DNA of 64,000 nucleotides from Promethearchaeota archaeon (GTDB lineage: Archaea; Asgardarchaeota; Heimdallarchaeia; Hodarchaeales; Hodarchaeaceae). The notes beneath the pieces were generated by a model. That model did no database searches. It had not been told where the DNA came from and worked only from the letters and a program-made list of their open reading frames with translations. A program made the position numbers and the translations under genes. Below are positions 2,672-27,113 of the stretch, piece by piece. Within the stretch, counting starts at the first letter, position 1. Every line of letters starts with the position of its first letter. The DNA lies in NCBI GenBank assembly GCA_048938105.1, contig JBHLMN010000025.1, forward strand, positions 17,723-81,722, written 5' to 3'.

Positions 2672-4063
2672 ATGAATGACCAAGAAGAAATACTAATACA
2701 AAAAACTAGATGGAATAGTCGCAGGTTTCTCCTTTTGTATTGGTTCGCTTTCGTTTTCGTAGGAACTGCAGCAGCAGCTGGTTTAGGAACTAGTGTTCTA
2801 AATCCTAAAATAAAGATTAACAAAGTCGATCACAGTTCGCTCAACTTACCAAGTGAATGGGGTCCAGAAGACTGCACAGGTTCCATGTGTCATAATGATA
2901 CAGTCGCTTCCTGGAATGAGACAGGCCATTCAAGAGCTGGGACTCTCTTGCCAAATGGCTCATGGCTTGTAGGAGACGATCATATCTACAACGATTCCTT
3001 TTTCCGCTCCTGTTATGGAGGTGATGAAGCATTAATTCAATGCCATACTACTCGATACAACGAAACAGATGGAACCTACTGGACTGGAACCAACGGTGTT
3101 AGCTGTGCGGCGTGTCATGAAGAACCAGGTATGATAGATTATGCAGCTGACAACTGCCAAATCTGTCACGAGTATTCAAATAATAATATAACTGGAGACT
3201 ATCAGATGAGTGCACATAGTAAATCATATGAAGATTTGTTAGCAGGTGGATATGCACCTAGCAGCTGTTTACACTGTATGACTGGTCAAGGGGTATATAT
3301 GGATGTGACAGGTCAAGAAGACATCTTGACTTCGATAAACTGTGGAACTTGTCATGATCCACATGATGCAACTAATGAAGCCCAACTCAGAGAAACCGAG
3401 GTTAATGAACTTTGTGGCACTTGTCACAGTAGTACAGTAGAAGTATTCGAGGATTCCCGCAATAAACACTTGAACTACGTAGATGAAGCTTGTGCTTCAT
3501 GTCATGGATATCAGCTAGACCCTAAACCCTGGAACCCCAATAATGCGAGGATTAACCATTCATGGACGATTAATTTCGAAGATGCCTGTGGACAATGTCA
3601 CACAGGTCAAGTCGACACACGAAAAGACATGTTAAATTATATCCAGGGGAACTTCGAATCTCTGAATGCCACATACTACACCCAACTCGCTAATGTCACT
3701 GCTAAAGTTGATGAAGCAAATGGGACAGCTGGAGTGGATCTGTGCACAATCGAAGATGCGTATGCTCTGATCGAAGAAGCTGAAGAACTGATTTATCCAG
3801 TTGAACATGATGGAAGTTATGGTTTCCATAATCCCACAATGATGGAAGATAATTTTGCACTGGCCCTAGCCAAACTAGATGAGGCATATGTTAAAGCCGA
3901 GACTGCTATTGGTGGTGAACAAACTAGTTCTACAAGCACTACTGGATCTACTAGTTCAATTACAACTTCAGGTGGTACACCTGGATTCGAGTTGTCCACT
4001 ATCTTGGCAGTAATCAGCCTCGTATCAACAGCAACAATCTTATTACACAGAAAGAGACGCTAA
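2672..4063 (+). CDS. Surface-anchored multiheme cytochrome c 1 (9 heme-type sites, NrfA/c552-like C-terminal core)
   Basis: Sites CX4CH, CX9CH, CAACH, CQICH, CLHCM, CGTCH, CGTCH, CASCH, CGQCH; helical domain with DGSYGFHNP; S/T linker, then PGF+TM+RKRR tail. Start MNDQEE chosen by paralog comparison (ORF track starts at 2642). Confidence 0.92.
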   Translation: MNDQEEILIQKTRWNSRRFLLLYWFAFVFVGTAAAAGLGTSVLNPKIKINKVDHSSLNLPSEWGPEDCTGSMCHNDTVASWNETGHSRAGTLLPNGSWLVGDDHIYNDSFFRSCYGGDEALIQCHTTRYNETDGTYWTGTNGVSCAACHEEPGMIDYAADNCQICHEYSNNNITGDYQMSAHSKSYEDLLAGGYAPSSCLHCMTGQGVYMDVTGQEDILTSINCGTCHDPHDATNEAQLRETEVNELCGTCHSSTVEVFEDSRNKHLNYVDEACASCHGYQLDPKPWNPNNARINHSWTINFEDACGQCHTGQVDTRKDMLNYIQGNFESLNATYYTQLANVTAKVDEANGTAGVDLCTIEDAYALIEEAEELIYPVEHDGSYGFHNPTMMEDNFALALAKLDEAYVKAETAIGGEQTSSTSTTGSTSSITTSGGTPGFELSTILAVISLVSTATILLHRKRR

Positions 4064-4097
4064 ACACTTGGTTGGATCCATCTCTAAAATAAAAAAC

Positions 4098-4157
4098 GAT
4101 AACAGCTCATTCGCTGTTATCTTTACCCTTTTTCCAGAAGTGTGGGGAATGAGGAAG
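4098..4157 (+). terminator. Hairpin plus T-tract after cytochrome 1
   Basis: GATAACAGC-tcattc-GCTGTTATC, then a T-rich run; an equivalent element follows cytochrome 2. Confidence 0.6.
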
Positions 4158-4294
4158 GTTTCGTTGTAAAACATGAGTCTATCGAGCTTGCTTGAAGTGT
4201 TTTCCAAGATTTAATTTTTGCTTTTAAAACTGGTACTTTTTCAATAATCCGCTATAAATTACGATTGTCTTGATACCCCTTCAGAAAAACTGAG

Positions 4295-6469
4295 ATGATT
4301 AAATATATGCAAAATAGTTTATCTACACTACTAAAGTGTAATCAAAGGTATCTTTTCTTGCCTTTACTAGTATTACTTATCATAATCCCTTCGATTATGA
4401 TGTTATCTCCGACTAGTAAAAGGTTGGATTTTGTAGAGTCTCAAAAAAATACTTCTAGTATTTCTCCTAAAGTGAGTAACAACGAACAAGACAACAATCC
4501 TGATGCTTATTTTCCAAATTTTCTTTATTATTCAATTTCAGTGGCAAATGCCCTGATTGATTACTTATACGACAATGATTCTGGTGGATTCTTCCGCTCA
4601 GTTAACCAGTTCTGGTCTAATAATTCCATTAATATGTTGAAATATTCTTATGATCAAGCACAAGCTATTCTTGCATTATTAAAACTTTCTGATGCTGTAA
4701 TTAATGATTCTGAACGTGATTTTGCGATTCATTTTGCTGAATTAATCGGTAATTATATGATAACACGTCTTTATGACAATGAAGTTGGAGGATTCTATAC
4801 ATCCACTAGTAGTTCATATAAAAAGCCAGGAGTGAATGGAAAAGTTATTCAGTCTCTCCTCTCCCTATACAAGACCACTGGCAACATTTCTTATAGAGAT
4901 AAAGCAATTGAAACTTTTGAGTTTATAGACAATTTTGGTTGGGATAGTGAAAGTGGTGGTTATGTTTATCTACTGTCTCATAGTGGTCTCATTGCATCAT
5001 CGAATCCCAGTTCAGCCGATCCTTATGATCCTAACTCAAAAAAAGTAGATCATAATGCTATTATGGGGGAAGCCTTACTTGAACTATATCTTTTAACTTC
5101 TGATCCTTCATACATTTCTAAAGCAACAGAACTTTACCAGTTAATCAACACCTCTTCCAGAGACTATACCACTGAATTGTTCTATATTGGATTTAACAAT
5201 GGTGGAATTGTTGAGCCGGATTATACTGACATTTTTATAAATTCCCTGATGCTAGAGTTTCTATCTCAGCTCTACAACATAACTGGGGATTTGACTTACT
5301 TTTATGATTTTCAATCTTTAATAAATGCTGTTCTTTTAAATTTTTGGGACTCTTCCAATGGAGGATTTTTTGCCACATTCCCCTATAATAGTCAAGTTGA
5401 GAAAGACGAGAAGAAATACACAGAGAGGCAATTTTATGCAATTAGAGCTCTTGATGAGGCCTACAAGTTGACAAACAATAACTTATATTATAATCTCATT
5501 CTGGATGTAATGGAATTTCTAAATAATAATCTCTATGATAATGTTCATGAGGGATACTACCTATTAGCAAACGCTGATGGAACAGAAGGAGAACAAAACT
5601 GGAAAGATAAATATTCTGTTACTCAATCCCTAGCTATCTACGAATTAGCCAATCTCTGGCTTTATAGTAAGCCTAGTGTTCTCAATGCTCTCTGGTCCCC
5701 TTTAAATCCACGACCTTCAGATGCTGTTACGATTAGGATTGCAGCGTTTGATGCGGATGGTCTTTCCACCGTATTGTTGAATTATTCTATGAATAACCAA
5801 CCCTACAAGTTAATAGAAATGACCACCAATGAACTAATAGGGAATATGTATGATTTTACCTTTGATTCTCAACCACATGGCACAACAGTGAATTTTAACA
5901 TCATTGTTAATGATACCTTAGGGAATATCGTTGTTCGAGAGTCATATTTCTTTGTTTGGGAGAATGATATTTTACCTCCTCATATTATGTTATTGGGAAT
6001 AAATCCAAGTAACGAGATTTTTGTCAGTTCTAATTTTAGTATAACTGTGAGTGTACATGATAATCCTCCCCAAGGAGATGTCACGAGTGTTCGTATGTAT
6101 TATAAAGAAACGGGTCAATCAAAGTGGGCATCCAGGGCATTATTTCGGTTAGGTGATTATTTGTGGAGGATAGAATTCCCCGATGGTTTCAAAAAACCTA
6201 ATAGATATGAATACTTCTTTGAAGCAATTGATAATCGAGGAAATTTTGGATTTAGTCCTTATTTTTACTTAGAAGTCTATGGCCATCCAAAAAACTTCCC
6301 ATTAACTGCATTTATTGGTGGCCTTTTTTTCATATTATTTATTGTTCCTGCAGGGATTATTGTTTACAAAGAATACAGTAAAAATAGTGCTCGTACAACC
6401 TTAAGAAACATTAAGAAGACACGCAATGTAAAACGGAGGAAAAAGAGAGGGACAAGACGTATAACGTAG
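4295..6469 (+). CDS. Membrane-anchored YyaL/AGE-like (alpha/alpha)6-barrel protein with Ig-like domains, copy 1
   Basis: Repeated (Y/W)DxxxGG(F/Y) units; KYSYDQAQA resembles YyaL KMLYDxAQ; N-terminal TM, two beta-rich domains, C-terminal TM and basic tail. Confidence 0.75.
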   Translation: MIKYMQNSLSTLLKCNQRYLFLPLLVLLIIIPSIMMLSPTSKRLDFVESQKNTSSISPKVSNNEQDNNPDAYFPNFLYYSISVANALIDYLYDNDSGGFFRSVNQFWSNNSINMLKYSYDQAQAILALLKLSDAVINDSERDFAIHFAELIGNYMITRLYDNEVGGFYTSTSSSYKKPGVNGKVIQSLLSLYKTTGNISYRDKAIETFEFIDNFGWDSESGGYVYLLSHSGLIASSNPSSADPYDPNSKKVDHNAIMGEALLELYLLTSDPSYISKATELYQLINTSSRDYTTELFYIGFNNGGIVEPDYTDIFINSLMLEFLSQLYNITGDLTYFYDFQSLINAVLLNFWDSSNGGFFATFPYNSQVEKDEKKYTERQFYAIRALDEAYKLTNNNLYYNLILDVMEFLNNNLYDNVHEGYYLLANADGTEGEQNWKDKYSVTQSLAIYELANLWLYSKPSVLNALWSPLNPRPSDAVTIRIAAFDADGLSTVLLNYSMNNQPYKLIEMTTNELIGNMYDFTFDSQPHGTTVNFNIIVNDTLGNIVVRESYFFVWENDILPPHIMLLGINPSNEIFVSSNFSITVSVHDNPPQGDVTSVRMYYKETGQSKWASRALFRLGDYLWRIEFPDGFKKPNRYEYFFEAIDNRGNFGFSPYFYLEVYGHPKNFPLTAFIGGLFFILFIVPAGIIVYKEYSKNSARTTLRNIKKTRNVKRRKKRGTRRIT

Positions 6470-8700
6470 TGAATGGAGAAATTACAATGATTTATATTGA
6501 TTTTGGAGCTTTTGGGATGGATTTAGGTATGTTGATATTGCTTTTTAGCCTAGTAGCCCTTTTGATTGATGTCTTTTTAGTGATTTATGGTGGATACATT
6601 GAAAAATGGGAAATTTATTCAGAAATAAGCCTTTCTGCTGGTATTCTGGCTATTATCATCTCTTTCCTATATTTTAGTTATTCAGTTATAACAGCTGATT
6701 ATCACTTCACCTATGTGAGTGATCATATTAACAATGATATGGACTTTTTCTTAAGACTATCAGCCATTTGGTCTGGACAGTCTGGATCTTATTTCTTTTG
6801 GACATTTCTAGTTGTAATGGTTTATTCAATCTTCAGGCTGATGTTCAAAGAGTACGCGCATGAGACAATCTTTTGGCGAGCGTTTGTCTTATCAGCTCTT
6901 CAAACATCTGTTTTGGTGGCCTTAACACTGCTAAGTGATCCGTTTAAAATAAATGATGGTGTTTTTTCCGATGGTATTGGATTAAATCCATTATTAATGA
7001 CGTATTGGAATCTCATACATCCTCCAATTGTTTTCATTGGTTATGCTCTATGTTTAATTCCAATGGTCATTGGAATAACAAGAATCTCTATTCTTAAAAA
7101 TGGTGAGTTGCCAGAATTTGAAGGTAAAGAAAAATTAGATAATTTCTTTGAATTTTTAGTTTCATTTGCATGGCTTATATTAAGCCTTGGAATAATAATT
7201 GGTGCTTATTGGGCTTATATGACTCTCGGTTGGGGTGGTTTCTGGGCATGGGATCCCGTAGAAACAGCTTCGTTGATACCCTGGCTTTTTATAACCCTTT
7301 ATTTCCATGGAAAACCTTTTTTTGGCAAAACTAAATACCTAGAAAATTACATTATTAGCATGAGTTACATTGGTGCTTTGTTTACTACATATTTAACAAG
7401 AAGTAATATAATTTCAAGTGTACACGCATTTCAATCCGAAGCAACTTTAGAAAATATTCTAAAGATTTTTATCCCAGAAAATAGTTTTTTTATGTCCATT
7501 ATATTGCGATTCATTCCTGATGAGAAGATGTTATTACTTTTTATTGTCATAATAAGCACTTTTCTTATCCCACATTATTTTGGAATTAGGAGTAAGGATA
7601 TAACAAGGATTCCAATCTATTTTGAAAGAAAAGATTTTCAAGGATCAAGATCTCATATAACTGCCTTAAAAATCTCCTTTATTTCAGGTCTTATAGGTTC
7701 TTATATTATCATCATAGGTTTGATAACCCCTACTATTTATGATATTGTTGGATATATAATCACTTTCAGTCCAGAGGGAGTTGGTTCAAGCATTGTTGTA
7801 GACCAATTGTATTTTAATACAGTTATAACGATTTTTGGAGGTATAATGTTACTTGCGCAGTTTTTCTGTACTTTTTATCCGAGATTGGATGTTAAGAAGA
7901 AGTTTATGTTAATGATAGGAGGATTAACAGCAGGAATCACATTTTCAATAGGAGGTTTCTTATATCGAAGTGGTTTTCTTAATCAGATTCTTGGAGACAA
8001 AAACCTAATACTTCTCTTATTCAATAACTTCTGGACAACTAGTGACAAAGCAAACTTAGTAATTCCTCTTCTATTTCTGGGAGTGGTTGGATTGCTAGTA
8101 GAGTTTTTAAAAGTGGCTTTTAAAGAAGAAAAGAATGTTATCCGAAAAACATCGCAAATACTGTTACATCTTTCTTTCTTAGTAATTCTCCTTGGTGCAT
8201 TAATGAGTGCAAATATGACTGTTTCTAGTCAAATTTTGGGTCAAGAAGGAGGTGAATATAAAATTCCAGGAACTTCTGTAACAATTATTATTATAGATTT
8301 AGATAGAAGATTTCCTGAATCAGGTTTCAATCGAGTCGAATATGATACACAATTCATGTTGTCATCAGATGCACGAATCATTGCATTTGGAATCAGTAGA
8401 CTCGCTTATGATAAGATAAACCGAATGGATCATGAGGTGACAATAATTAACGATCTCTTTTCTAACATTTACATCGTAACTAGTGGGGTTTTTGAAAACC
8501 CCATTTCTGGAATTTTTGAGGCTGCTTCCCTCCAGATTAAAGTTATACCATATATTAACATTTTGTGGGTAGGATGTCTTCTCCTCCTTTTTGCTATCCT
8601 CCCCTTGACCATAGGGAGATTTATTATCCTGAAAAAGACCTTATCTTTTAGAGAAATAGAACAGAAAGATGTTAAAACGAAAATAGTGCCAATTAAATGA
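6469..8700 (+). CDS. ccmF: Cytochrome c heme lyase CcmF, copy 1
   Basis: WSGQSGS, HPP, WGGFWAWDPVETASL (WWD motif), SVHAF; true start may be ATG 6487 (MIYI, as in the paralog). Confidence 0.93.
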   Translation: MNGEITMIYIDFGAFGMDLGMLILLFSLVALLIDVFLVIYGGYIEKWEIYSEISLSAGILAIIISFLYFSYSVITADYHFTYVSDHINNDMDFFLRLSAIWSGQSGSYFFWTFLVVMVYSIFRLMFKEYAHETIFWRAFVLSALQTSVLVALTLLSDPFKINDGVFSDGIGLNPLLMTYWNLIHPPIVFIGYALCLIPMVIGITRISILKNGELPEFEGKEKLDNFFEFLVSFAWLILSLGIIIGAYWAYMTLGWGGFWAWDPVETASLIPWLFITLYFHGKPFFGKTKYLENYIISMSYIGALFTTYLTRSNIISSVHAFQSEATLENILKIFIPENSFFMSIILRFIPDEKMLLLFIVIISTFLIPHYFGIRSKDITRIPIYFERKDFQGSRSHITALKISFISGLIGSYIIIIGLITPTIYDIVGYIITFSPEGVGSSIVVDQLYFNTVITIFGGIMLLAQFFCTFYPRLDVKKKFMLMIGGLTAGITFSIGGFLYRSGFLNQILGDKNLILLLFNNFWTTSDKANLVIPLLFLGVVGLLVEFLKVAFKEEKNVIRKTSQILLHLSFLVILLGALMSANMTVSSQILGQEGGEYKIPGTSVTIIIIDLDRRFPESGFNRVEYDTQFMLSSDARIIAFGISRLAYDKINRMDHEVTIINDLFSNIYIVTSGVFENPISGIFEAASLQIKVIPYINILWVGCLLLLFAILPLTIGRFIILKKTLSFREIEQKDVKTKIVPIK

Positions 8701-9104
8701 GAGTACATGAAATGATTAGATCTAAAAACCTTATGTTCGCTATAATTATAATGTTTGTAAGTGTAAGTGCATTATTGTTTCTATTAAGTAGTTCCAGTGT
8801 TCCAGTTTTTTCCGTAAAAGAACTTAAAAGCCATTCCCAACCCAGTTCTTTCTTAAATCATAATATTCAAGTGGTAGGTGTCGTTCAGGATATAAATAGT
8901 ACTGGTTTTTTTATAACAGATCCAGAGGATGTAACAAATTCATCCTTGATTATATACATTAATGCGACTAATGTAGAAAAGCCTGTAGGTTTTGAATCTG
9001 GAAAAACTATTCTCGTTGAAGGAAAACTCATTTCAACAACAGGTATGTGGAAGCTAAAAGCGTCAATGATTAGCACTAAGTGTCCATCTAAGTACACAGA
9101 GTGA
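8697..9104 (+). CDS. ccmE: Heme chaperone CcmE, CxxxY (System I*) type, copy 1
   Basis: N-terminal TM, OB-fold-like body, terminal KCPSKY. Confidence 0.92.
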   Translation: MRVHEMIRSKNLMFAIIIMFVSVSALLFLLSSSSVPVFSVKELKSHSQPSSFLNHNIQVVGVVQDINSTGFFITDPEDVTNSSLIIYINATNVEKPVGFESGKTILVEGKLISTTGMWKLKASMISTKCPSKYTE

Positions 9105-9153
9105 GATCTTTTCTTATCAAGAAATATAGAGTAAAGTGTTAAAGTGAGTATAA

Positions 9154-9642
9154 ATGAACATCCAATCAAAGAAAGTAAATGATGAAAGTCTTGAATGGAG
9201 TGGAGAGTTTAAGCAATTCTTAAAGGAATGGTTCTCTGGGTTAATAGCTGGAATTGAAAGATTGAATGATAGTACTTGGCCTATGATTTTAGAGTTAACG
9301 GGTCGTGCTTGTGCACGAATCCATTCTAATGCATTATTTTGGGAGATTTGGGAACTTACCCGTAACCTTGATGATTTCATTGAAAAAGTTAATGAAATAT
9401 ATAAAGAAAAAGTCTTTGAGATTATTGACAAGGATACTATCTCTGTATGTTATTCTAAATGTAATTGCCCATTAGTCGAACATGGTTTAGTAGACTCACC
9501 TCTCCTGTGTAATTGTTCCCCAAACTGGTTAGCAGAGAATTTTGAATCAATTCTTAAAAAATCAGTAATAATAACCACTAAAAATACGATTTTAAGAGGA
9601 GCAAAGAGTTGTAATTTTATTATTTCTATTGAAAGCGAATAA
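9154..9642 (+). CDS. Cys-motif V4R-like small protein (DUF6144-like)
   Basis: GRACA, KCNCP, CNCS, TILRGAKSCNF pattern. Confidence 0.65.
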   Translation: MNIQSKKVNDESLEWSGEFKQFLKEWFSGLIAGIERLNDSTWPMILELTGRACARIHSNALFWEIWELTRNLDDFIEKVNEIYKEKVFEIIDKDTISVCYSKCNCPLVEHGLVDSPLLCNCSPNWLAENFESILKKSVIITTKNTILRGAKSCNFIISIESE

Positions 9643-9965
9643 GGGTATATTAGAATACAGTTATTTTGATTATTTCAATTTGTTTTATCATTCTGAATTA
9701 TTTTTTGGTTTAAAAAAATCCTCACATAGTTTTACTATATATGGGCATCTGATTATCTATAAGGTTTTACTGATTTTTCAATCAATTCAACAACAATGAA
9801 AACAACTCTACATGATATAGTCTGTCTAGCAAACGCATTATCTCTTCTGAGAATGACAAAACTGATATACATCAAATAAACTAGATAACTCTATGTTTAA
9901 GGTTAGCTTCGTTAATTCTGATAACAATAATTCTGCTGATCTTCCTTAGTGAAGCCAAATATAAT

Positions 9966-10151
9966 TCATTTCATCTTGTTTCTTAATTCTTCCAAGTTAT
10001 TATTTGCCATAATCAGTTCTTGAAGAGCTATTTCAGAAAATTCATCATTCAATCCGTTATTAGGGTAGCATTTGAAAAAAAAGTTACAAATATTACAATT
10101 TGGGAAGAAATCACGACAAATCTTTTCTCTATCGGTCTTTCCATTTTTCAT
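9966..10151 (-). CDS. Small Cys-rich protein (Cx6CxxCx5C plus coiled tail)
   Basis: 61-aa ORF with AGGAG upstream and four clustered Cys. Confidence 0.5.
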   Translation of the reverse strand: MKNGKTDREKICRDFFPNCNICNFFFKCYPNNGLNDEFSEIALQELIMANNNLEELRNKMK

Positions 10152-10418
10152 TTTTTCACTTCTCCTTAATACTTATTTACTTAACAACAATTATGTTGTA
10201 GTTATGTTATATTTTTTATATTTATAACATTTTTTATTTTTAAAATTTTTTTTGTGTTTTAATTATTTTATTCATTCTATTAATGAATGGTATATTTCTG
10301 AAGAAATAAACTAAATAACAATAAGACAATTTAGAAATGGGTGCTTGAAAACTTAAATTGAATTTTTCCCTTCTATCCCAACGTATAGCACAATTAGCAG
10401 AAAAAAGAAAAAGAATTT

Positions 10419-10607
10419 TCTGAAGATATGATTAGCAAATCTTTGGTTATTTTTATCAATGTAAATAATGTTAACATACTTACAGGATTTGAATCTGGAA
10501 AAACTGTACTGGTAGAAGGAAAACTCATCTCAACATTTTATACATAGTTCCTTAAAGCTACAATGATTAATACCTAATGTCTGTTTAAAAATAAAAATGA
10601 ATTATGA
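10419..10607 (+). pseudogene. ccmE: Decayed third ccmE (3' half)
   Basis: Translates to SLVIFINVNNVNILTGFESGKTVLVEGKLISTFYT*FLKATMINT*CLFKNK, colinear with both intact CcmEs; two in-frame stops; CPSKY lost. Confidence 0.85.
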
Positions 10608-10693
10608 GGAACTAGTCTTGATAACTAATAAATTTCAATGAAACCTAAACTGGATTTTTTTATCATAGTAATTTGTATTGCCATCCTGAACTA

Positions 10694-10993
10694 TTATTTC
10701 GAAGATCCTAAGCTTCCCATTAAGATAAATACCTTTCTCTTTCCAATTTGATTTGACAAGATTGCAGTTAAAATATCAGCAATCAAGTAAGAAGCATAGA
10801 GGGCTGTGTCGAAATAGGAAGCTTTCAATAAGTATAAACTAAACCGCTCAACCAGGAATTCATATTGATTTGTGTGTAGAAGTGTTGGAGTCAAAATGGT
10901 TACGAAAACCAAAACACCCAACACAATGATTTGCGTCATTGAACTGGGATTTATTGCACTCTAGAAATCCCGATCCCTATTTTCCTTTTTCAT
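10694..10993 (-). pseudogene. Truncated MFS transporter N-terminus
   Basis: About 3 TM segments with an MFS motif-A-like LSNQIGKRK, then an early stop; upstream in-frame ATG at 10993 is cut off by a TAG. Confidence 0.6.
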
Positions 10994-11073
10994 TTCTCAT
11001 CTATTAATTAATATATTACTGATTGGTAATTCAAACCTTTGTTGAAATAATTTAATTCTATGATAAATCCTTG

Positions 11074-12027
11074 TTATGGGAGAAAAGAAGTAATGACCAC
11101 TCCCACAAATAACCAGAGAAATGCAAATGCCATAAAAATTGATGCCAGTTTGAAGATCTTAAATGTCCTTTCATGAGATGGTTTTCTAAGATTAGTAAAT
11201 GCTTGAAAAAGGATGAATAAACAAAAAAGAATTAAAGGGAGAAGAGCGAGAAGATTAATTTCTAGACTGATCCCAGCTAGAACAATGATTGAAGCACTAA
11301 GAATAGCTGATAATGTTACAACACGAATTGTTTGGGTTTGACTACTGACTACAGGCCACATGGGGACACCGGCATTCTTATATCCCTCTAGGTTCTTGGG
11401 GATAAGAGCTAGAGTAAGAATATGCAAAGGAATCCAACAGAGAACAAAAAGCCCCATCAATATTGCAGTCAGATCAATTATTCCAATCACTGCAGCTCGC
11501 CCCGCAACAGCTGGGAGTCCTCCTGCAACACCCCCAAAAATTATAGATAACCGTGTTCGTCGTTTTAACAAAAGTGAATAAACAACAACATCAAAAAAAA
11601 ACCCTAAGAAGACAACAACCATTGTAAGAAAATTAACAAATATTCCCACCACCAGAGTACCTGCAGCTGTGAAGAGAATTCCGTGTTTTAACACAGTCGA
11701 AGGAGGAACTCTTCGACTGGGTAAAGGACGATCTCTTGTTCTTTCCATAAGTGCATCAATATTACGATCTACGTACATATTAAGCAATGTGGAGCCAGAA
11801 ATTGCAAAAAAAAGCCCAACAACAAACCAAATGAATGACAATAGGTTGAAGCTTGCGCCCCAAGCGGTTATTAGATGAGCAAAAATTGCAGTATATAGAA
11901 GAAGAAATGTTTGTTTGCTTTTGATAAGTTCCCCGTATGTAGAAAGAGAAAGAGGGGGGTATGAATATTTTACCAATTCTTCATGTTCCAGTTGTTGTTG
12001 GGGAATTTCCATTTCATCCATCAACAA
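11074..12027 (-). CDS. cyoE: Protoheme IX farnesyltransferase (heme O synthase, CyoE/CtaB)
   Basis: NMYVDRNIDALMERTRDRPLPS, YSLLLKRRT, GGVAGGLP, WIPLH, YKNAGVPM. Confidence 0.93.
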   Translation of the reverse strand: MLMDEMEIPQQQLEHEELVKYSYPPLSLSTYGELIKSKQTFLLLYTAIFAHLITAWGASFNLLSFIWFVVGLFFAISGSTLLNMYVDRNIDALMERTRDRPLPSRRVPPSTVLKHGILFTAAGTLVVGIFVNFLTMVVVFLGFFFDVVVYSLLLKRRTRLSIIFGGVAGGLPAVAGRAAVIGIIDLTAILMGLFVLCWIPLHILTLALIPKNLEGYKNAGVPMWPVVSSQTQTIRVVTLSAILSASIIVLAGISLEINLLALLPLILFCLFILFQAFTNLRKPSHERTFKIFKLASIFMAFAFLWLFVGVVITSFLP

Positions 12028-12059
12028 GCCATTCCATAATTACTCAATTGAATAGGGTA

Positions 12060-13643
12060 TTATTCTGGGAACTCCTTAACATCTTTTCTTCCTTTGAGAA
12101 TCTGGATGAGCTGATGGAAACAAAAGATGGTAATTGCAATGACAAAAAGCATTATTCCAAAATCAATTATAAGATTAATTAAAGATAGATTGGGTAGTAA
12201 AGGCATATTGTGAAGCCAGTAATCCAGTACATCATCGTATTTATCTAATTCTGCCGCCCAAGTCTGATCAAAGTGGGGAAAATACATATAGATCGCTGTA
12301 GGAAGAAATGCCATGATGCTACCAGCAAAAGACAGCCAACCCATTGCTATTCGTGGCTTACCTTGAATATCTAATATGTCAATGAAGAAAAGGAGGAGGA
12401 GGATCGCTGATAACACAGCTAAAACGTGCCAATGACCACGGGCAACCGTATCTTCGATAGCTACAGGGCCCGATCGAAATGATACCATACCTGTTACCCT
12501 CGTCAAAATTGAATCATCGCGAAGACTAAGCGCAAGGAATATACCTGTAAAAGTCATTACGAAATTTACCCATATGAATAAGAAATATAACGTAAGTTTC
12601 ACAGGATCTTTGAACACAGCTTTTGCACGAGTAAGCCAGGATGCAGATCCATAAGAATCACCAAGGATTTCCTTACTCGTTTTATTCCAACCAGTTAATG
12701 CCAATATTAAACCAACAGTTACGAGAATTGCTGAGCCTGCATAAATTAGATAATGAATATCAACATCAGCGAATGAATGAATCCACTCGGAGATTGTAAC
12801 AAGCCAACATCCTATTGACATGATGATAAATCCTGGAATAGCAAGTAACATTGAAATAAGATACCACTTCCCCTTTTGATCTGGAACAGTGTACCGATAT
12901 ACAACTAGTAAGATAATCACATCGATAAGTCCCAACATTATATGTAAATGACCCTTAATCCCATCAACAAATATAACTGGGTAAGTAATATAGTCATATT
13001 CTCTAAGAAAATATTCTGCTTGTAATACTGTCAATCCATTACCGAAGAAAGCTCCTATTGACGCTCCGAGTACAACACTTGCTAAGATACAGATAGTAAG
13101 TAGTGCTAATGCAAGTTGTGCGACAAAAATATTCCTACCTGTATCTGGATCTCGTCTTGGGAAGGTCCTGGTTGGGAAAACACCGATAAGTAACATGATA
13201 CCCGCATAGAAACAAAGAGACATCCCTACCAAGAACAGACCATGTAATATCCACGCCTCTGGAAGAATATACGCAAAAATCAGTGCATTCGCAGAAGCTA
13301 AAATACTCCCAATAAATAAAGGCCATTTCACGCGCGATCTAAACTTCTCCCGAACATCCATGAATTCCAGAACAAAATATGTACATACAGCAATGAATGG
13401 AACCGAGATTGCATGATAAACCATAATTATACGGCCCGCTTTTTCAACTGGATCGGGGTCTAATGTCATCCAAGGCTCTACATTTAAGAGTCCCGTTATT
13501 GGTTCAGAAAAGGTCGATAAAAAGAGAACAATACAGAACTCCCAAACAATCGTAAAAGTTATCATTCCTTTATAGGTCAGACCATAATTGATTTTGTACT
13601 TTAACCAGGGAATAATTCCTTCTTCTTTTACTTCAGTCGTCAT
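12060..13643 (-). CDS. Polytopic membrane protein with intramembrane His motifs (putative heme-binding), upstream of cyoE
   Basis: About 12 hydrophobic segments; VYHA, ILHG, GHLH, DIHY, GHWH. Confidence 0.7.
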   Translation of the reverse strand: MTTEVKEEGIIPWLKYKINYGLTYKGMITFTIVWEFCIVLFLSTFSEPITGLLNVEPWMTLDPDPVEKAGRIIMVYHAISVPFIAVCTYFVLEFMDVREKFRSRVKWPLFIGSILASANALIFAYILPEAWILHGLFLVGMSLCFYAGIMLLIGVFPTRTFPRRDPDTGRNIFVAQLALALLTICILASVVLGASIGAFFGNGLTVLQAEYFLREYDYITYPVIFVDGIKGHLHIMLGLIDVIILLVVYRYTVPDQKGKWYLISMLLAIPGFIIMSIGCWLVTISEWIHSFADVDIHYLIYAGSAILVTVGLILALTGWNKTSKEILGDSYGSASWLTRAKAVFKDPVKLTLYFLFIWVNFVMTFTGIFLALSLRDDSILTRVTGMVSFRSGPVAIEDTVARGHWHVLAVLSAILLLLFFIDILDIQGKPRIAMGWLSFAGSIMAFLPTAIYMYFPHFDQTWAAELDKYDDVLDYWLHNMPLLPNLSLINLIIDFGIMLFVIAITIFCFHQLIQILKGRKDVKEFPE

Positions 13644-13827
13644 ATAATAACCTCTTGAGTAATATCTCTTATTATGGTTTTTTGATGGTTTTTTGACATT
13701 TTATCAATTCTTCATAAGAAATATTTATGATTTAATTTCAACTACTTTAGTAAGTTAAGACTGAGATTTCGATATTTTTATTCAATCTTCTGACAATAAG
13801 TAAGTTTTCTATGGTTTTTCTAATTTG

Positions 13828-13851
13828 GTGAGAAAAAAGTAATCTGATAAC
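13828..13851 (-). promoter_or_regulatory. 24-bp shared operator, copy A
   Basis: Minus strand GTTATCAGATTACTTTTTTCTCAC; matches copies at 16455, 16633 and 18408. Confidence 0.7.
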
Positions 13852-13961
13852 TTCCATTCCCAATGATTGGAAAAAAAAAATAAGGTAGAAAAGACATATT
13901 TTCTACTGGATTGTAATTATTTACCTTCAATGTGTTTGAACGTCAATTACTAGGAATTTAT

Positions 13962-14627
13962 TTAGAAAGGGATTTCTGCTTTCCATTTACTGGGTAACAG
14001 AATTCCTAGAACGAAGAAGACTCCAACAATTACTAATAAGAGAGGTAACACATCAAAAATTTGTTGTTCAGTTAAAAATGGATTTTCCAATGCAACAAAG
14101 GCAAGCAATACTCCACCAAATGAAATTAGTAATCCACCAATTGAGAAGAGAATACTTGTCATTTCCGTTTTTTTAGTGAAGGCGGTATAAAGTGGAATAC
14201 CAACAATTGAAAGACCACTGGGGATATGGAGGCCCATTAATACAGGTGAGGAAAAGGCATCAAGACCAGAAATGAGCTCAAGTCGGACAACTGCCAAAAC
14301 TAGTACCATTACAACTGTAAAAATAGTGTAAAATAATCCGTAAGGTTTGTCCTTCCAAACAGCAAAGAATAGTCCAATTGCTAAACAAGCAGGTATAAAA
14401 GCTGCAACTACTGGCACTAAGGGTTCCTTAAGGATGATAAAACCGTTCAATATAATCAAAACTCCCGATACAAACAGAACAAGGAAGCTAATGGCCCATG
14501 CTATATGATAGACTTTCTTATTCTTTAAGTAATTTAAAATAAGCAAGATTGCCATAACTAGTGCCACAACACCAGTCACCAATAATAGTAGTATTGGTAT
14601 TAGGTTCGTTGATATATCATCTAACAT
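13962..14627 (-). CDS. About 7-TM membrane protein of unknown function
   Basis: Hydrophobic throughout; His in YHIAW and GLHIP. Confidence 0.75.
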   Translation of the reverse strand: MLDDISTNLIPILLLLVTGVVALVMAILLILNYLKNKKVYHIAWAISFLVLFVSGVLIILNGFIILKEPLVPVVAAFIPACLAIGLFFAVWKDKPYGLFYTIFTVVMVLVLAVVRLELISGLDAFSSPVLMGLHIPSGLSIVGIPLYTAFTKKTEMTSILFSIGGLLISFGGVLLAFVALENPFLTEQQIFDVLPLLLVIVGVFFVLGILLPSKWKAEIPF

Positions 14628-14733
14628 CTTTAAACCTCAAATAACAATTGTTAAATCTGCAGAATAGTAGTAGGTGGCAAAAATATTAGGATTTGCTAAA
14701 CGAAAGCTCATGGATTAATAGTTCAGATAGTAC

Positions 14734-14757
14734 ATAACAAAAAAATAACCTAATTAT
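14734..14757 (-). promoter_or_regulatory. Degenerate copy of the 24-bp operator
   Basis: Minus strand ATAATTAGGTTATTTTTTTGTTAT, between the 7-TM gene and the HxlR gene. Confidence 0.4.
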
Positions 14758-14903
14758 TTTTGAGGTAAAAAAATATATACTTGAATTAGGAGTAGCTAAT
14801 AGTTATTATGAAAAATTATTCAATATAATTAATGAATAATTCCCTATTATTAAGAACTGGTTTTTTTCTTAAACCTAAGTTTAATTAAGAAGGTAAATAT
14901 ACG

Positions 14904-15374
14904 ATGAATAATTACTCAGAAGATGAATGCTCTGCTATGGTCGCTATCAAGATTCTTGGACGGAAGTGGATTCCTTGGATTGTGTGTGAACTCTTATCAG
15001 CGGGAGAACTATTCTTTTCTGACCTCCTAGACAGAATTGAAGGAACTTATGGGGAAAAAATATCCGCAAGAGTCTTATCGGAGTCTTTGTCCAGGTTAGA
15101 AGAGATGAACTTATTAGAACGTACGGTAGTTAGCGAAACAATGCCCATTAGAGTGAGATACTCCTTGACTCCTAAAGGAACAGATCTTCAGGTAGTTTTT
15201 GCGGTTTTAAAGGGGTGGGGAATAAAATGGGGAGACATTCGTCAGAAAAGATGTCGTTCATTCAGTTGTATTCATAATTGTGTTCCAATGATTGATATTG
15301 ATAAAGCAGCAGGTTTGTTGGAACTAAGAGATCCAGAATCACCCCCTCTGAATAAGATTGAGGATTCTTCTTAG
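14904..15374 (+). CDS. HxlR/DUF24-family winged-helix regulator with N-terminal Cys and C-terminal CxxxxCxxxC
   Basis: EC...ILGRKW, FSDL, ISARVLSESL, PIRVRYSLTPKG..L. Confidence 0.9.
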   Translation: MNNYSEDECSAMVAIKILGRKWIPWIVCELLSAGELFFSDLLDRIEGTYGEKISARVLSESLSRLEEMNLLERTVVSETMPIRVRYSLTPKGTDLQVVFAVLKGWGIKWGDIRQKRCRSFSCIHNCVPMIDIDKAAGLLELRDPESPPLNKIEDSS

Positions 15375-15560
15375 CTTGTCGTTCTAGCGTTTTTTATTAG
15401 GATTGATCAAAAAGAACTCCATATCGAAGGGTTTATTGTTAAAAAACGAGGGTACTTCATTCGTGAGATGATTAGGTAATAAAAAAAGAGTGGAAGAAAA
15501 CCTACCAAGTTGTTTTCTTCGGATGTTGTCAGGCTTAGTCTCAAGAAAATAATTTCTTAA

Positions 15561-16295
15561 TTAGGTTTTCAAAGGTACTGGTTTAGGAGAATAGATTACA
15601 TTTAACAATCGTCCAGCAATTTGTGTAATCATCCCAAGTAAGAAACACAACATTCCACCAAAGAACTGAAGTGTGCCTGAGGATAAGAGATAACCATATC
15701 TATCTACACCAATATTTACCCCATCAATTATGTGTGTTGGCATAATTAAAGGTTGAACCATCATTACAATCCCTAAACCAAATAACACAAAAGCAAAGTT
15801 TGCAACTTGAGATCCAACGCTTCCTCCAGAAGAAGAAGCAGGTTCTTCTATATGTACCTTAATTTCTTGCTTAAACTTTGGTAATAATAGTAAGATCAAT
15901 ATGATCAAATTCAGGATCGCTGAAATCCAAGAAGGGGTGAAAAGTAAACCTGTCCGTGGTGTAGAAAAAAAGCCAATTGACATTAATATAGCAGGAATAC
16001 CTCTCCCTATAATTCCTGTAATACTGGCAATAAGGGCTGCTGGATAGAACCACGTTTTTCTAGCCCAATATGCCCAGATAAGAACTCCCCACGCAAGCGC
16101 TGAGAACCAGGTCACAAAGTAAGTGATAAACCAGATTTCTGAATAGTCTCCTGCAATTGCGAATGGCCCCTTTTGCCAAAATGGATCAAGTGATACGCAC
16201 GTACTTCCAATGGCACTAACAACTCCAACAGCTGCTGCCGCACCTATTAAGAATTCCATTTTATGTTGAGTTATTGCTTTTAATATACTACTCAA
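15561..16295 (-). CDS. Membrane protein of unknown function
   Basis: About 6 TM helices. Confidence 0.75.
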   Translation of the reverse strand: MSSILKAITQHKMEFLIGAAAAVGVVSAIGSTCVSLDPFWQKGPFAIAGDYSEIWFITYFVTWFSALAWGVLIWAYWARKTWFYPAALIASITGIIGRGIPAILMSIGFFSTPRTGLLFTPSWISAILNLIILILLLLPKFKQEIKVHIEEPASSSGGSVGSQVANFAFVLFGLGIVMMVQPLIMPTHIIDGVNIGVDRYGYLLSSGTLQFFGGMLCFLLGMITQIAGRLLNVIYSPKPVPLKT

Positions 16296-16454
16296 GTTCC
16301 TAACCTTCTTTTTTCTGATTAAATTTCTGCATTAATTTTTAGGATGTACAAGGCTTGAAATTTCAACTAATCATTTGATTGACTATCAAAAATTCAGTTC
16401 TTGGTTCCTTCCAATGTTGCGAATAAGAGCATTTGGTAAGATTTGAATAATATA

Positions 16455-16478
16455 GTGAGAAGAAAGTAACCTGATTAC
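16455..16478 (-). promoter_or_regulatory. 24-bp shared operator, copy B
   Basis: Minus strand GTAATCAGGTTACTTTCTTCTCAC. Confidence 0.7.
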
Positions 16479-16632
16479 TTAGTAAGGGAAAAAACCAGAA
16501 TAAAAATCATCCTAAAAATATACTACAAAAAGCTTTGAAATTAAGATGTTAATTACTTCCCGAGAATTACAGCGCTATCCCACACGATTTATTAAATTCA
16601 CAATTACACTAAGCCTATAAACAACCTTGCAT

Positions 16633-16656
16633 GTTATCGGGTTACTTTCTGTTTAC
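16633..16656 (+). promoter_or_regulatory. 24-bp shared operator, copy C
   Basis: GTTATCGGGTTACTTTCTGTTTAC followed by TTGATTATTGAAAACTTAGAAAA. Confidence 0.7.
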
Positions 16657-16808
16657 TTGATTATTGAAAACTTAGAAAACACTTCTTATTGAAGGAGGGT
16701 GCCTTTTAATAGAGCCCCCTGAAATTTCAATGATCATTCTGATGATTGATTGATATTTCAAAGAGAATTGGGGCTTAATGGCATTAATAAACATGAGGAG
16801 ATAAGGAT

Positions 16809-18185
16809 TTGAATGGAAAGCCGAAACATACCATGCTTTTAACCTCAGTGATTGCTATATTTTTCTTGATCGGAGGAGTATTTGTTATTAAAACTTCTGT
16901 TCATTTTTTCCCGATAGATAGCTCAATTGATTCGAATTTAATTAGCAATGAAGCGAATAAAGTTATTCCTCAGAATTACACCAGACGGGAGGTTATGAAT
17001 GTTCAACAAGACGCGTGTTGTGGTCATACTGATACAACTCCTCCTACAATACAAATCAATTCGCCTGCTAATAATTCCTTTGTACTTGGAGGTACAATTA
17101 TTGATCTAAAAATTTTTGATGATAATCCGTTTTATGATTACGAAGCAAAACAAGTCCTTTATCGTTGGGGAACAGACCAAAGTAATACAACCCTTGACTC
17201 TCCTCATAATGTGGTTATATCAAATGATATTGGAACATATGTTTTGTATGTCTATGCAGAGGATAATGATGATAATTGGGGTTCAGCTATATTCAGTTTT
17301 ACAGTTACATTAACTTACAATCCACCGACTATAGAAATAATTTTCCCCAGCACTAGTAATCAAACTCTTACAGGAATGAAGTTATTCAGTGCCAATGTGA
17401 ATGATGATAATGGAATTCTCGACGTAAAAATACAAATCGATGTAGTGGTGGATGGTGTTAGGTATCCTGGTCGTACTTACCCTATGTATTATAACGAGAC
17501 ATCTAGTTATTATGACATGAATTTCAATGTTTCATCGCTGACTAATGGCTACCATTGGCTTGTAACAATCGCTACAGATCTTGATGGGGAACAGCACATA
17601 GTTACTAAAGAAATTGATTTTACAGTTATTGGTGGGATAGGAGTAATTGTGGGGGGTGATCCACCTGAATGGGATCAAATCCAATCAGTTCTTCCCAAAA
17701 ATGTTAGTAAATATATCGAAGAAGATAAATTCTCAGATTACGAGGCAGAAGTTGGTGATGTTTACTTTAAGCTGGTTGTATCTGATGAAGTGGGAATTGC
17801 AGCAGTTGATCTCACAGTTTACGCGTTGGATGATTTTGATAATAGTACTGGTGAGTTTGAGCTTGGTGATGCTCGGATAGAATTATCTGAATCTCTAAGT
17901 CAAATTGGAACCAATGGAAACTGGCTTATATATGAATATACATGGGATAGCACATCTTCTTTGGATAATTATTATCTATGTAAATTTGAAATCCAAGATG
18001 AGGATACGATAACGAATCGCTTAATAATCAGCATAGTTCTTGAGATAGACAACGTTGTTGATGATCAACCAACCGTTGACTTTGGTTCACCAGGGTTTGA
18101 GGTAGAAATACTAATTCTCGCTCTGTCAAGTTTGGTTCTCTTAGCTGTCCTTATCAACCGTAATCATACTCACAAGAATGACTAG
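16809..18185 (+). CDS. Secreted acidic Ig-like-repeat surface protein with PGF-type C-terminal anchor
   Basis: Signal/TM segment; D(T/N)xPPxI-type Ig repeats; SPGF+TM tail; ACCGH near the N-terminus. Confidence 0.8.
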   Translation: MNGKPKHTMLLTSVIAIFFLIGGVFVIKTSVHFFPIDSSIDSNLISNEANKVIPQNYTRREVMNVQQDACCGHTDTTPPTIQINSPANNSFVLGGTIIDLKIFDDNPFYDYEAKQVLYRWGTDQSNTTLDSPHNVVISNDIGTYVLYVYAEDNDDNWGSAIFSFTVTLTYNPPTIEIIFPSTSNQTLTGMKLFSANVNDDNGILDVKIQIDVVVDGVRYPGRTYPMYYNETSSYYDMNFNVSSLTNGYHWLVTIATDLDGEQHIVTKEIDFTVIGGIGVIVGGDPPEWDQIQSVLPKNVSKYIEEDKFSDYEAEVGDVYFKLVVSDEVGIAAVDLTVYALDDFDNSTGEFELGDARIELSESLSQIGTNGNWLIYEYTWDSTSSLDNYYLCKFEIQDEDTITNRLIISIVLEIDNVVDDQPTVDFGSPGFEVEILILALSSLVLLAVLINRNHTHKND

Positions 18186-18407
18186 AGAACTAGACTCCAA
18201 TCATCTCATCTTTCCCCAAGATTGCTATTTGTTTATTTTGTGATTCAAATTTTCTCATTTTTATTTCCAGAATTATTATTAAAATAATCATGTTCAAAGG
18301 TGTAGAAGACAACCAAACCTACTCTGACTTAGAATTCCATAGGTTCTCTGCTATTATACCTCAACACAGGGTACTCTAATGATGATAATTTCGAGTATTT
18401 TTTACAT

Positions 18408-18431
18408 GTAATCAGGTTACTTTCTACTTAC
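18408..18431 (+). promoter_or_regulatory. 24-bp shared operator, copy D (cytochrome 2 promoter)
   Basis: GTAATCAGGTTACTTTCTACTTAC followed by TTGATTATTGAAACCTTAGAAAA. Confidence 0.7.
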
Positions 18432-18615
18432 TTGATTATTGAAACCTTAGAAAATCTTCTAAAAGTCGTAGGATGTTCTTTATCAGACTTGAAATTTCCT
18501 TAATCTTTCTTATGATTAATCGAAATTTCAAACAGAGCCTATTCTCAAAAATTTAAATCAAAACAGAAATTTGCAGTAACTTTAAATGAAATCCAAAAAA
18601 AATGGCGGAATTTTA

Positions 18616-20178
18616 ATGAATGACCAAGAAGAGATCTTAGTACGCCAAAGTAAGTGGAACGGTCGCAGAGTTGTATTGCTCTACTGGTTTGCTATTGTCT
18701 TCATTGGAACAGCAACAGCTGCTGGTGTTGGAGCTGGTGTTTTAAATCCAAAATACCAGTTTAAAGTGGAACAATACACCCATGACGATAAATTCGGCGA
18801 TGGAACTATCTGGCATCCCGAAGAATGTGCTACTTGCCATCCAGCGGAATACGAAGGTTGGAACCAAACTCTCCACTCTTATCTTTTCGCTGAGTATAAT
18901 GAATCTTATTTGATTCATTATAGCGGTACTTACCAGAACACAACCGCATTCCTGGAAAGTAAAGGCTGTTGCCATGTAACAAATTGGTACAATGATACTT
19001 CTGTTGACCCTTCAGGTGAACTTAAAGTTTGGGATTATGGAGTGACTTGTGCAGCTTGTCACGAGGATCCGGATAATGGATTTGATCCCGTGGGTTATAT
19101 GCCATTCGGTCCAGCATCCTACCCCTGTGGTGGTTATGGTATGAAGGGTATGCCACTATGTCATATCCCCCGTGGTGTTTCTCAGTTTGATATGATTGGT
19201 CCTCACTCCCAAGCGCTCGATGATTTGCTTGCTAGTGACGATATAGACGATTCTTGTCTCCATTGTATGACTGGAAATGGTCTTGTCTATGGTTATGGCC
19301 CAGGTGAAAACAAAAGCTATGAGTACGGAGAACTTATCGGTATCGAGTGTTATGTATGCCACAATCCTATGGGTGTTTCCAATGAACTGTATAAAGAGGA
19401 TAAATATCCTAATCTTACTCTTAATTCTACACTGAGAGCAAATAGTATTCCTGAACTTTGTGGAGAATGTCACAGCGGAGATTACGACTCATCTTATGCA
19501 ATGATAACAGATACTACTGTTCAAGGTCCCCATTCAAACTTCGATTGCACACAATGTCATGGATATTACTTAGATCCTGCAACTGAGTCGCAAAATGCTT
19601 CTTTTGAGCTCAATCATACATGGACACTCAAACTTCCTGATGCGTGTGCTACTTGCCATCTTCCTACGGGTACAAACATGAGTGCTCTCAATGCCACAAT
19701 AATGGCAACTACTATGGAATCTAGGATGGAGCTCCTTGAGGGCATCCAAGAAGATATTGCAGCATTAGTAGATACAGTTGAAACTGAGATAACAGCCACC
19801 ACCACCAAAGCAGACGAAGCTGCAGCAGTTTCAGGTGCTGATGAGGATGAAATCGCTGAAATTTACCTCTTGATTGAAGAAGCTAAAGCCTTGGTCGAGT
19901 TTGTTGAAGCCGATCCAGCAGGTGGATTCCACAATCCTGATCTCACGGAAGTAAAACTACAGTTGGCATTGACTAAGTTATCTTGGGCGAAAACAGCTGC
20001 AGAAGCTATAATCACTCCCCCAGGTACCACCACTGAAGAACCGTTAACAGTAACCAAAACCACACATGCAACTGAAACTATAACTGAAACCACAACTGCA
20101 GCAGCAACAGCTATTGGTATCTTAGCAGTACTCAGTATCCTCAGTGCAACCGTTCTTTTCCAGAAAAAAAGGCGTTAA
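18616..20178 (+). CDS. Surface-anchored multiheme cytochrome c 2 (paralog of 2672..4063)
   Basis: Sites CATCH, GCCH, CAACH, CX10CH, CLHCM, CYVCH, CGECH, CTQCH, CATCH; DPAGGFHNP; Thr-rich linker, TM, KKRR (ORF track start 18586). Confidence 0.92.
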   Translation: MNDQEEILVRQSKWNGRRVVLLYWFAIVFIGTATAAGVGAGVLNPKYQFKVEQYTHDDKFGDGTIWHPEECATCHPAEYEGWNQTLHSYLFAEYNESYLIHYSGTYQNTTAFLESKGCCHVTNWYNDTSVDPSGELKVWDYGVTCAACHEDPDNGFDPVGYMPFGPASYPCGGYGMKGMPLCHIPRGVSQFDMIGPHSQALDDLLASDDIDDSCLHCMTGNGLVYGYGPGENKSYEYGELIGIECYVCHNPMGVSNELYKEDKYPNLTLNSTLRANSIPELCGECHSGDYDSSYAMITDTTVQGPHSNFDCTQCHGYYLDPATESQNASFELNHTWTLKLPDACATCHLPTGTNMSALNATIMATTMESRMELLEGIQEDIAALVDTVETEITATTTKADEAAAVSGADEDEIAEIYLLIEEAKALVEFVEADPAGGFHNPDLTEVKLQLALTKLSWAKTAAEAIITPPGTTTEEPLTVTKTTHATETITETTTAAATAIGILAVLSILSATVLFQKKRR

Positions 20179-26125: not shown

Positions 26126-26157
26126 AGCTGGCTGGAAATTAAGAGGTGATGATTATC

Positions 26158-27100: not shown

Positions 27101-27113
27101 ACCTTGGGGATGA

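Follow-up and report, generated by a model that had tools for sequence, protein, structure and literature searches.

Two OcwA-like, probably nonahaem cytochromes with atypical haem motifs and their CcmH-less maturation cassettes in a Hodarchaeales-type archaeon

The paralogous cytochromes and their homology to OcwA

The window analysed here is a 64,000-nucleotide stretch of contig JBHLMN010000025.1 (Promethearchaeota archaeon, Hodarchaeales; assembly GCA_048938105.1, positions 17,723 to 81,722), in which two parallel + strand cassettes, A and B, each combine a multihaem cytochrome gene with genes for cytochrome c maturation (Ccm). The two paralogs are best read as surface-anchored nonahaem c-type cytochromes, homologs of OcwA, that are matured by a CcmH-less System I encoded in the same cassettes, a reading to which a probability of roughly 0.7 is assigned and which is built on homology, conservation, cassette structure and phylogeny. 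Since both cassettes lie on a single 81.7-kb contig, the pair is not a binning artefact. Paralog A, whose architecture is shared by paralog B, consists of an N-terminal transmembrane (TM) anchor, nine Cys-pair sites, a C-terminal three-helix bundle, a S/T-rich linker and a PGF-type C-terminal anchor.

2642..4063, + strand: multihaem cytochrome paralog A, 473 aa from a GTG start (the database form runs from Met11, nt 2672)
18586..20178, + strand: multihaem cytochrome paralog B, 530 aa (Met11 at nt 18616)

Searching with paralog A retrieved about 60 close homologs, all the named ones being Asgard archaea (Hodarchaeales, Heimdall, Hermod, Thor, Odin), and many of these relatives carry the NCBI label NrfA. 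A family profile built from 56 members and searched against the PDB matched OcwA of Thermincola potens (6i5b) best (E 4e-35), followed by MccA (5e-29), OmhA (3e-21) and octahaem and pentahaem nitrite reductases (about 1e-17). The profile was needed for this result; single-sequence phmmer searches of the PDB with A and B gave marginal matches only. On sequence grounds, the family is placed within the NrfA/c554/MccA superfamily together with OcwA. The profile alignment matches sites 1-9 one-to-one, in unchanged order, with the nine CXXCH of OcwA, upholding the proposal of a first-pass annotation of the window that canonical and stretched motifs occupy equivalent haem sites in the two paralogs.

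OcwA was also the best structural match of the AlphaFold2 (AF2) models, with VIA Z 18.6 over 311 residues for A and Z 16.8 over 328 residues for B (predicted local distance difference test score, pLDDT, 72.6 and 71.6, respectively). The three-helix bundle of A is modelled as helices 324-361, 367-388 and 398-422. The structural alignment of NrfA with the paralogs starts only at about residue 165, that is, from site 5 onward, and PF02335 (C552) matches the C-terminal part only, at 30-32 bits.

In OcwA, haems 1-4 overlay those of cytochrome c554, and haems 5-9 overlay NrfA haems 1-5; haems 2 and 5, at opposite ends of the haem arrangement, are five-coordinate putative active sites, haem 2 being the equivalent of the MccA active-site haem and haem 5 standing where NrfA has its CXXCK haem 1 (PMC6703420). 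By this correspondence, site 2 would be the equivalent of the c554/MccA/OcwA active-site haem, and site 5, spelled CLHCM in both paralogs, would occupy the NrfA catalytic-haem position.

The two cytochromes share 34% identity. Their best-kept part is the N-terminal cytoplasmic and TM segment (MNDQEEIL...RR..LLYWF...GTA; 2672-2812 in A and 18616-18755 in B), with 62% amino acid and 75% nucleotide identity over 153 nt, compared with about 30% elsewhere. This segment is almost unchanging family-wide, which is odd for a plain signal anchor.

Nine sites in each paralog

The Cys pairs of the two proteins are located as follows.

2873..2893, + strand: site 1 of A, CTGSMCH (CX4CH), aligned with OcwA haem 1
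3011..3046, + strand: site 2 of A, CYGGDEALIQCH (CX9CH), aligned with OcwA haem 2
3104..3118, + strand: site 3 of A, CAACH
3155..3169, + strand: site 4 of A, CQICH, canonical
3266..3280, + strand: site 5 of A, CLHCM, aligned with OcwA haem 5
3341..3601, + strand: sites 6-9 of A, CGTCH, CGTCH, CASCH and CGQCH, all canonical
18826..18840, + strand: site 1 of B, CATCH, canonical
18967..18975, + strand: site 2 of B, (G)CCH, zero spacer, the first Cys at -1 and not at -3
19048..19062, + strand: site 3 of B, CAACH
19126..19164, + strand: site 4 of B, CGGYGMKGMPLCH (CX10CH), a loop conserved in seven sequences
19255..19269, + strand: site 5 of B, CLHCM
19348..19659, + strand: sites 6-9 of B, CYVCH, CGECH, CTQCH and CATCH

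Every motif named in the first-pass annotation is present, the DNA reading as described there, and its contrast between six haems by CXXCH count and up to nine in total also holds: a regular-expression count gives six CXXCH in A and six in B, and each protein has nine Cys pairs. Three of the nine sites are non-canonical in each paralog, and the residue after the second Cys (Cys2) is His at eight sites and Met at one (CLHCM). The 18 Cys of B form the nine pairs, and the 19 of A comprise nine pairs plus C368. The nine pairs would represent nine haem-attachment sites; nine haems per protein is the most likely number, and at least seven are predicted.

Chance or sequencing error is ruled out as the source of these motifs, because the A-type motifs recur in an ortholog at 81% identity, whose clade also contains graded forms (CX3, CX7, CX9), and CCH together with CX10/11CH recurs in seven sequences. 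The consensus of the CX10CH loop across these seven is C-[GSA]-G-[YV]-G-[MV]-[KR]-G-x-P-[LFM]-C-H.

Four rigid and five labile sites across the family

The spacer and the residue after Cys2 were tabulated per site in 78 full-length relatives, and state changes were counted as the minimum on a FastTree phylogeny of the family.

Site 1: X2 in 58, X4 in 14, X9 in 3, X1 in 2; 11 changes
Site 2: CXXCM in 23, CCH in 19, CCM in 15, CXXCH in 11; more rarely CXXC followed by K, R, F or W, or CX3, CX7 and CX9CH; 11 changes
Site 3: CXXCH in 78; 0 changes
Site 4: X2 in 56, X3 in 14, X10 in 6, X11 in 1, X7 in 1; 5 changes
Site 5: CXXCM in 60, absent in 8, CXXCV in 5, CXXCH in 3, CXXCQ in 1, CXXCL in 1; 8 changes
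Sites 6, 7 and 8: CXXCH in 78; 0 changes each
Site 9: X2 in 61, X3-X10 in the rest; 8 changes

Both Cys and the following His are retained at any spacer at sites 1, 3, 4, 6, 7, 8 and 9. Variation peaks at sites 2 and 5, which correspond to the open-coordination haems of OcwA; that the most variable sites are the putative catalytic haem positions had been overlooked in the first-pass annotation. Exactly 18 Cys are found in 47 of the 78 proteins, and no conserved Cys lies outside the nine pairs. The most distant family members have nine canonical CXXCH, as OcwA does.

CC[H/M] is found at site 2 in 34 of the 78 relatives, with a single origin for the CC state on the tree, within one clade of 34. 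In the lineage of A, the spacer at the same site comes in graded lengths (CX3, CX7, CX9), the form of A itself being a 7-residue insertion within the ancestral CXXC. Site 2 would have been remodelled repeatedly: CXXCH became CxHCM, from which the B lineage derived CC[M/H] and the A lineage CX3, CX7 and CX9CH. CX4CH at site 1 and CX10CH at site 4 would result from loops inserted in particular lineages between the thioether Cys of ordinary electron-transfer haems. Site 4 is non-canonical in all 19 sequences with CCH; because this association is a single evolutionary event (one independent pair on the tree), no coupling between the two is claimed.

The haem motifs listed in a 2024 survey are CXCK, CX2CK, CX3CH, CX4CH, CX11CH, CX15CH and CX17CH, with His or Lys as proximal ligand (PMC11492766). 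In that list, the spacer between the thioether Cys ranges from one residue (the contracted motif of a Kuenenia multihaem cytochrome; Ferousi et al., 2019, as cited in PMC11492766) to 17. The CX7, CX9 and CX10 spacers found here are not in the survey list, and neither is any zero-spacer motif. The description of CCH as very unusual in the first-pass annotation agrees with that list, in which no spacer is shorter than CX1C; CC[H/M] is nevertheless a conserved trait of its clade.

Haem ligands

Seven non-motif His are conserved in the family (H64, H96, H192, H241, H276, H306 and H396 in A numbering), the same number as the invariant CXnCH sites. This count fits a picture of seven six-coordinate haems plus two special ones, and the most likely reading of the stretched sites 1 and 4 is therefore as ordinary haems with bis-His ligation. 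A covariation between loss of H276 and loss of site 5 was sought and was not found, all eight sequences without site 5 retaining H276. In many relatives, sites 4 and 7 are each followed by an OcwA-like HH-type motif (GSHHPQY after site 4). Both window paralogs have lost these motifs, which means that the environments of haems 2 and 5 have been remodelled in these two proteins.

In paralog B, the distal His after site 6 (CHDPH) is replaced by Met (19348-19368, CHNPMG); it is His in the closest relatives, and the same His-to-Met change arose independently in the clade of P0023. The replacement would imply that one bis-His haem has turned into a His/Met haem.

Do sites 2 and 5 carry haem?

A full-text literature search yielded an engineered CXXCM variant and no natural one. 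CCH and CXXCM are thus without precedent in the literature searched. That they bind haem, and in what way, is an inference, as are haem occupancy and ligation in general and the chemistry at the two motifs. Haem binding is favoured by the strict retention of both Cys in every site 2 variant and by the CXXC-Met at site 5.

Several observations weigh against a full complement of nine haems or against its maturation by the cassettes. In some relatives, Cys2 is followed by V, L, Q, F or W, and site 5 has been lost outright in eight. Given the loss of the HH-type motifs, haems 2 and 5 may be altered or absent in the window paralogs. The pLDDT of the AF2 model falls below 50 at residues 161-198 of B, which include the CX10CH loop, and confidence is low too at the CX9CH loop of A; a geometric argument at the CX10CH loop was dropped for this reason. 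Besides, the genomes are metagenome-derived. The bacterial Ccm system requires the motif His. Moreover, it needs a dedicated lyase for CXXCK and for CX15CH (PMC6976685). On both counts, it is an assumption that a single CcmF can mature CXXCM and CCH.

Some of these observations also feed a different explanation, rather unlikely in our judgement, according to which the CCH and CLHCM sites hold no haem, the Cys pair forms a disulfide or, with His or Met, binds a metal such as Cu(I), and the proteins are hepta- or octahaem. V, L, Q, F or W after Cys2 cannot ligate iron, the survey of haem motifs has His and Lys as its only proximal ligands and no zero-spacer form (PMC11492766), natural CXXCM was missing from the full-text search, and site 5 is gone in eight relatives. 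Haems 2 and 5 lie at the chain ends in OcwA, and their loss would presumably spare the remaining chain; both window paralogs lack the OcwA-type HH pocket motifs; and MccA offers the example of a haem-copper enzyme in which two active-site Cys bind Cu. However, the exact CXXC spacing and position are held at site 5 in 70 of the 78 relatives, 60 of them with Met, a common haem ligand, and site 2 retains both Cys in every variant. Furthermore, the true site 5 losers have aromatic-rich sequence at that place and have not kept the Cys.

The nonahaem reading can be extended to a more specific proposal, which is advanced tentatively and at somewhat less than even odds. CC[H/M] and CXXCM would be new haem c motifs at both catalytic positions of an Asgard-specific OcwA-like enzyme, CC[H/M] as a zero-spacer attachment or as a single thioether with a functional vicinal Cys, and CXXCM as a Met-ligated haem, both matured without CcmH and with the six-hairpin protein described below replacing apocytochrome-handling factors.

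Maturation genes and the two CcmFs

Each cytochrome gene is followed by genes for a six-hairpin membrane protein, CcmF and CcmE.

4295..6469, + strand: six-hairpin (alpha/alpha)6 membrane protein 1, cassette A
6469..8700, + strand: CcmF1, with the WWD motif and four conserved His
8697..9104, + strand: CcmE1, with the archaeal CPSKY (CXXXY) haem-binding motif
20420..22657, + strand: six-hairpin membrane protein 2, 54% identity to copy 1
22660..24921, + strand: CcmF2, 67% identity to CcmF1
24836..25312, + strand: CcmE2, CPSKY; the real start is probably a Met near 24899
25445..27803, + strand: ccmC, ccmA and ccmB, in single copy and common to both cassettes, after cassette B

In the genome, the Cytochrom_C_asm domain is found in CcmF1, CcmF2 and CcmC only; no CcmH (PF03918) was found in this 99%-complete genome, and neither was a separate housekeeping CcmF. 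The cassette CcmFs are therefore taken as the general lyases, and not as extras. The two cytochromes are the only open reading frames (ORFs) of the genome with at least three CXXCH. Other ORFs have one or two CXXCH, seemingly by coincidence; the one examined lies in the window and resembles the hydrogenase small subunit VhuG. All nine sites would be matured by this CcmH-less archaeal System I from the same cassettes.

The first-pass annotation had proposed the difference in motifs as the reason for each paralog having a CcmF of its own, which would make CcmF1 and CcmF2 substrate-specific lyases like NrfE, SirE and CcsA1. There is precedent for such lyases, CXXCK and CX15CH requiring dedicated ones in E. 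coli, Wolinella and Shewanella (PMC6976685). CcmF, CcmE and the six-hairpin protein are duplicated while ccmCAB is single, and two paralogs that have one CcmF between them, P0018 and P0019, have identical motif patterns. The comparison of loci does not support the proposal, however: the cytochrome/six-hairpin/CcmF/CcmE cassette is present, with its own CcmF, in 18 of 18 related loci, including single-copy genomes, genes canonical at sites 1 and 4 and members CXXC-spaced at sites 1, 2 and 4, and a distant archaeal relative carries it too. P0083 and P0092, distant relatives with canonical motifs throughout, are on contigs shorter than 5 kb and are uninformative on lyases. In one genome (G018, 88% complete), paralogs with CX4CH and CX9CH at site 1 were found together with only one CcmF, by which both seem to be matured. 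In addition, as noted, the genome analysed here has no housekeeping CcmF beside which the cassette CcmFs could act as specialists.

The phylogenies argue in the same direction. CcmF1 and CcmF2 share 67% identity, with near-identical WWD and His motifs, and CcmE1 and CcmE2 share 62%; the nucleotide identity of ccmF-ccmE between the cassettes is 71.5%, whereas the cytochrome genes are detectably similar in their first 153 nt only. A and B fall in different deep clades of the cytochrome and six-hairpin trees, whereas CcmF1 and CcmF2, with their orthologs, are sister groups in the CcmF tree. Approximately unbiased (AU) tests, with groups picked after the trees had been seen, reject a CcmF topology congruent with that of the cytochrome or of the six-hairpin protein (p 3.6e-5, 1.4e-5 and 3.6e-4). 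The pattern suggests that ccmF was replaced or converted inside the lineage, and not that the genes co-specialised over a long time. Dedicated CcmFs are thus quite improbable; the account by spacer differences is unsupported, nothing specific speaking for it, although it is not disproved. The two CcmF/CcmE/six-hairpin sets would instead reflect inheritance of the whole cassette as a unit, spacer differences not being the reason. Each family member linked to a cassette carries one or more atypical motifs (CXXCM or CCM), and the CcmF and six-hairpin pair may be adapted to these motifs as a family trait.

In every cassette (also at L003, L004, L006 and L029-L045), the six-hairpin protein (about 730 aa) is encoded between the cytochrome and CcmF genes; it consists of an N-terminal TM segment, a GlcNAc-2-epimerase-like six-hairpin domain, Ig-like domains and a C-terminal TM segment. 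Its tree follows that of the cytochrome and not that of CcmF, and no Cys was seen in the pairwise alignment of copies 1 and 2. Its possible role is that of a maturation factor or of a partner subunit in the CcmH-less system.

Cytochrome paralogs that lack their own CcmF have two genes of about 600 aa each downstream or nearby (L007 11714-15301; L033 9610-13198); the pair of L007 encodes ABC_membrane plus ABC_tran transporters and looks CydDC-like. Some relatives contain extra CcmF-like genes away from any cytochrome gene (G009, L046 8064-10761; G014, L047 5969-7990), one of which has only 35% identity and sits within a few kb of ccmCAB and of a ccmE fragment.

Comparison with known systems

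The window proteins resemble OcwA (PDB 6I5B) in their nine haem sites in the same order, their fold, with a c554-like N-terminal module, a NrfA-like C-terminal module and a three-helix bundle, and their surface location. They differ from it in the spelling of the sites, OcwA having nine canonical CXXCH where the window proteins have CX4, CX9, CCH, CX10 and CXXCM among theirs; in lacking the HH motifs, OcwA having HH distal pockets at haems 2 and 5; and in being archaeal proteins anchored by an N-terminal TM segment and, at the C-terminus, by a PGF/Heimdall-type anchor.

The octahaem sulfite reductases MccA/SirA (PDB 4RKM) belong to the same superfamily (E 5e-29, Z 12-13.5), have an active-site haem 2 equivalent to site 2 and contain a long-spacer CX15CH/CX17CH motif. 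Nevertheless, the long spacer of MccA is at its last haem, whereas it is at haems 1, 2 or 4 in the window proteins. MccA also lacks the haem 5 position and has extra Cu-binding Cys (C399 and C495), while the conserved Cys of the window proteins are all in motif pairs. An identity as MccA/SirA was rejected, given CXXCH at site 9 in both paralogs and no conserved Cys beyond the nine pairs. The C-terminal core of five sites and the helices are shared with NrfA (PF02335; Z about 12-14, residue 165 or so onward), whose CXXCK haem corresponds to site 5. The window proteins have nine sites and not five, CLHCM and not CXXCK, and no NrfA model is among the NCBIfam matches of the window proteins, and that identity was rejected as well.

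Regarding maturation, NrfEFG, SirEFG and CcsA1/NrfI, the dedicated lyases for CXXCK and CX15CH (PMC6976685), likewise place a CcmF-family gene beside a multihaem cytochrome gene with atypical motifs. Those systems act beside a housekeeping lyase and have CcmH-like partners, whereas the cassette CcmFs are here the sole lyases, without CcmH and with a six-hairpin partner gene. A NrfE/SirE-type dedicated lyase is not supported, there being no general CcmF alongside and the CcmF tree being incongruent with those of the cytochrome and the six-hairpin protein. System I of Methanosarcina acetivorans (CcmABCEF) is closer: CcmE has CXXXY, which is CPSKY in both copies here, no CcmH was found, and ccmABC, ccmE and ccmF are present, the features of the archaeal variant of System I. 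In contrast, CcmF here is one polypeptide (about 750 aa), CcmF and CcmE each occur twice, and a conserved six-hairpin membrane protein is included within the operon.

Implications

Automated CXXCH counts give six haems for proteins that are better read as nonahaem OcwA-like surface cytochromes than as 'NrfA'. The pair appears to comprise the only multihaem c-type cytochromes of this Hodarchaeales-type genome. A recent Asgard study, which searched with a monohaem cytochrome c domain, reported no cytochrome c in Heimdallarchaeia. The paralogs are a concrete candidate for extracellular or small-molecule (nitrogen or sulfur oxyanion) reduction in close relatives of eukaryotes. In addition, a single family combines four rigid and five labile haem sites, including CCH and CXXCM, which are absent from the survey list (PMC11492766), all of them apparently handled by a minimal archaeal Ccm system, and so constitutes a natural test set for CcmF substrate acceptance.

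Neighbouring genes

Upstream of cassette B, a gene at 16809-18185 encodes a surface protein that combines Big_7 and Y_Y_Y domains with a C-terminal anchor of the PGF type; genes of the Ig/PKD type also lie upstream of the cassette at L003 and L004. Between the two cassettes, on the - strand (11074-13643), there are a UbiA-family (haem O synthase-like) gene and a gene for a polytopic protein of about 530 aa without a Pfam hit. This pair recurs downstream of the cassette at L004 (18477-21001; NCBI label Thorarchaeota), making it a conserved neighbour and possibly a membrane electron donor. Farther away, a probable hydrogenase operon occupies 51029-55856 on the - strand; its 302-aa ORF matches the F420-non-reducing hydrogenase small subunit VhuG, and its two CXXCH are taken to be iron-sulfur ligands and not haem sites.

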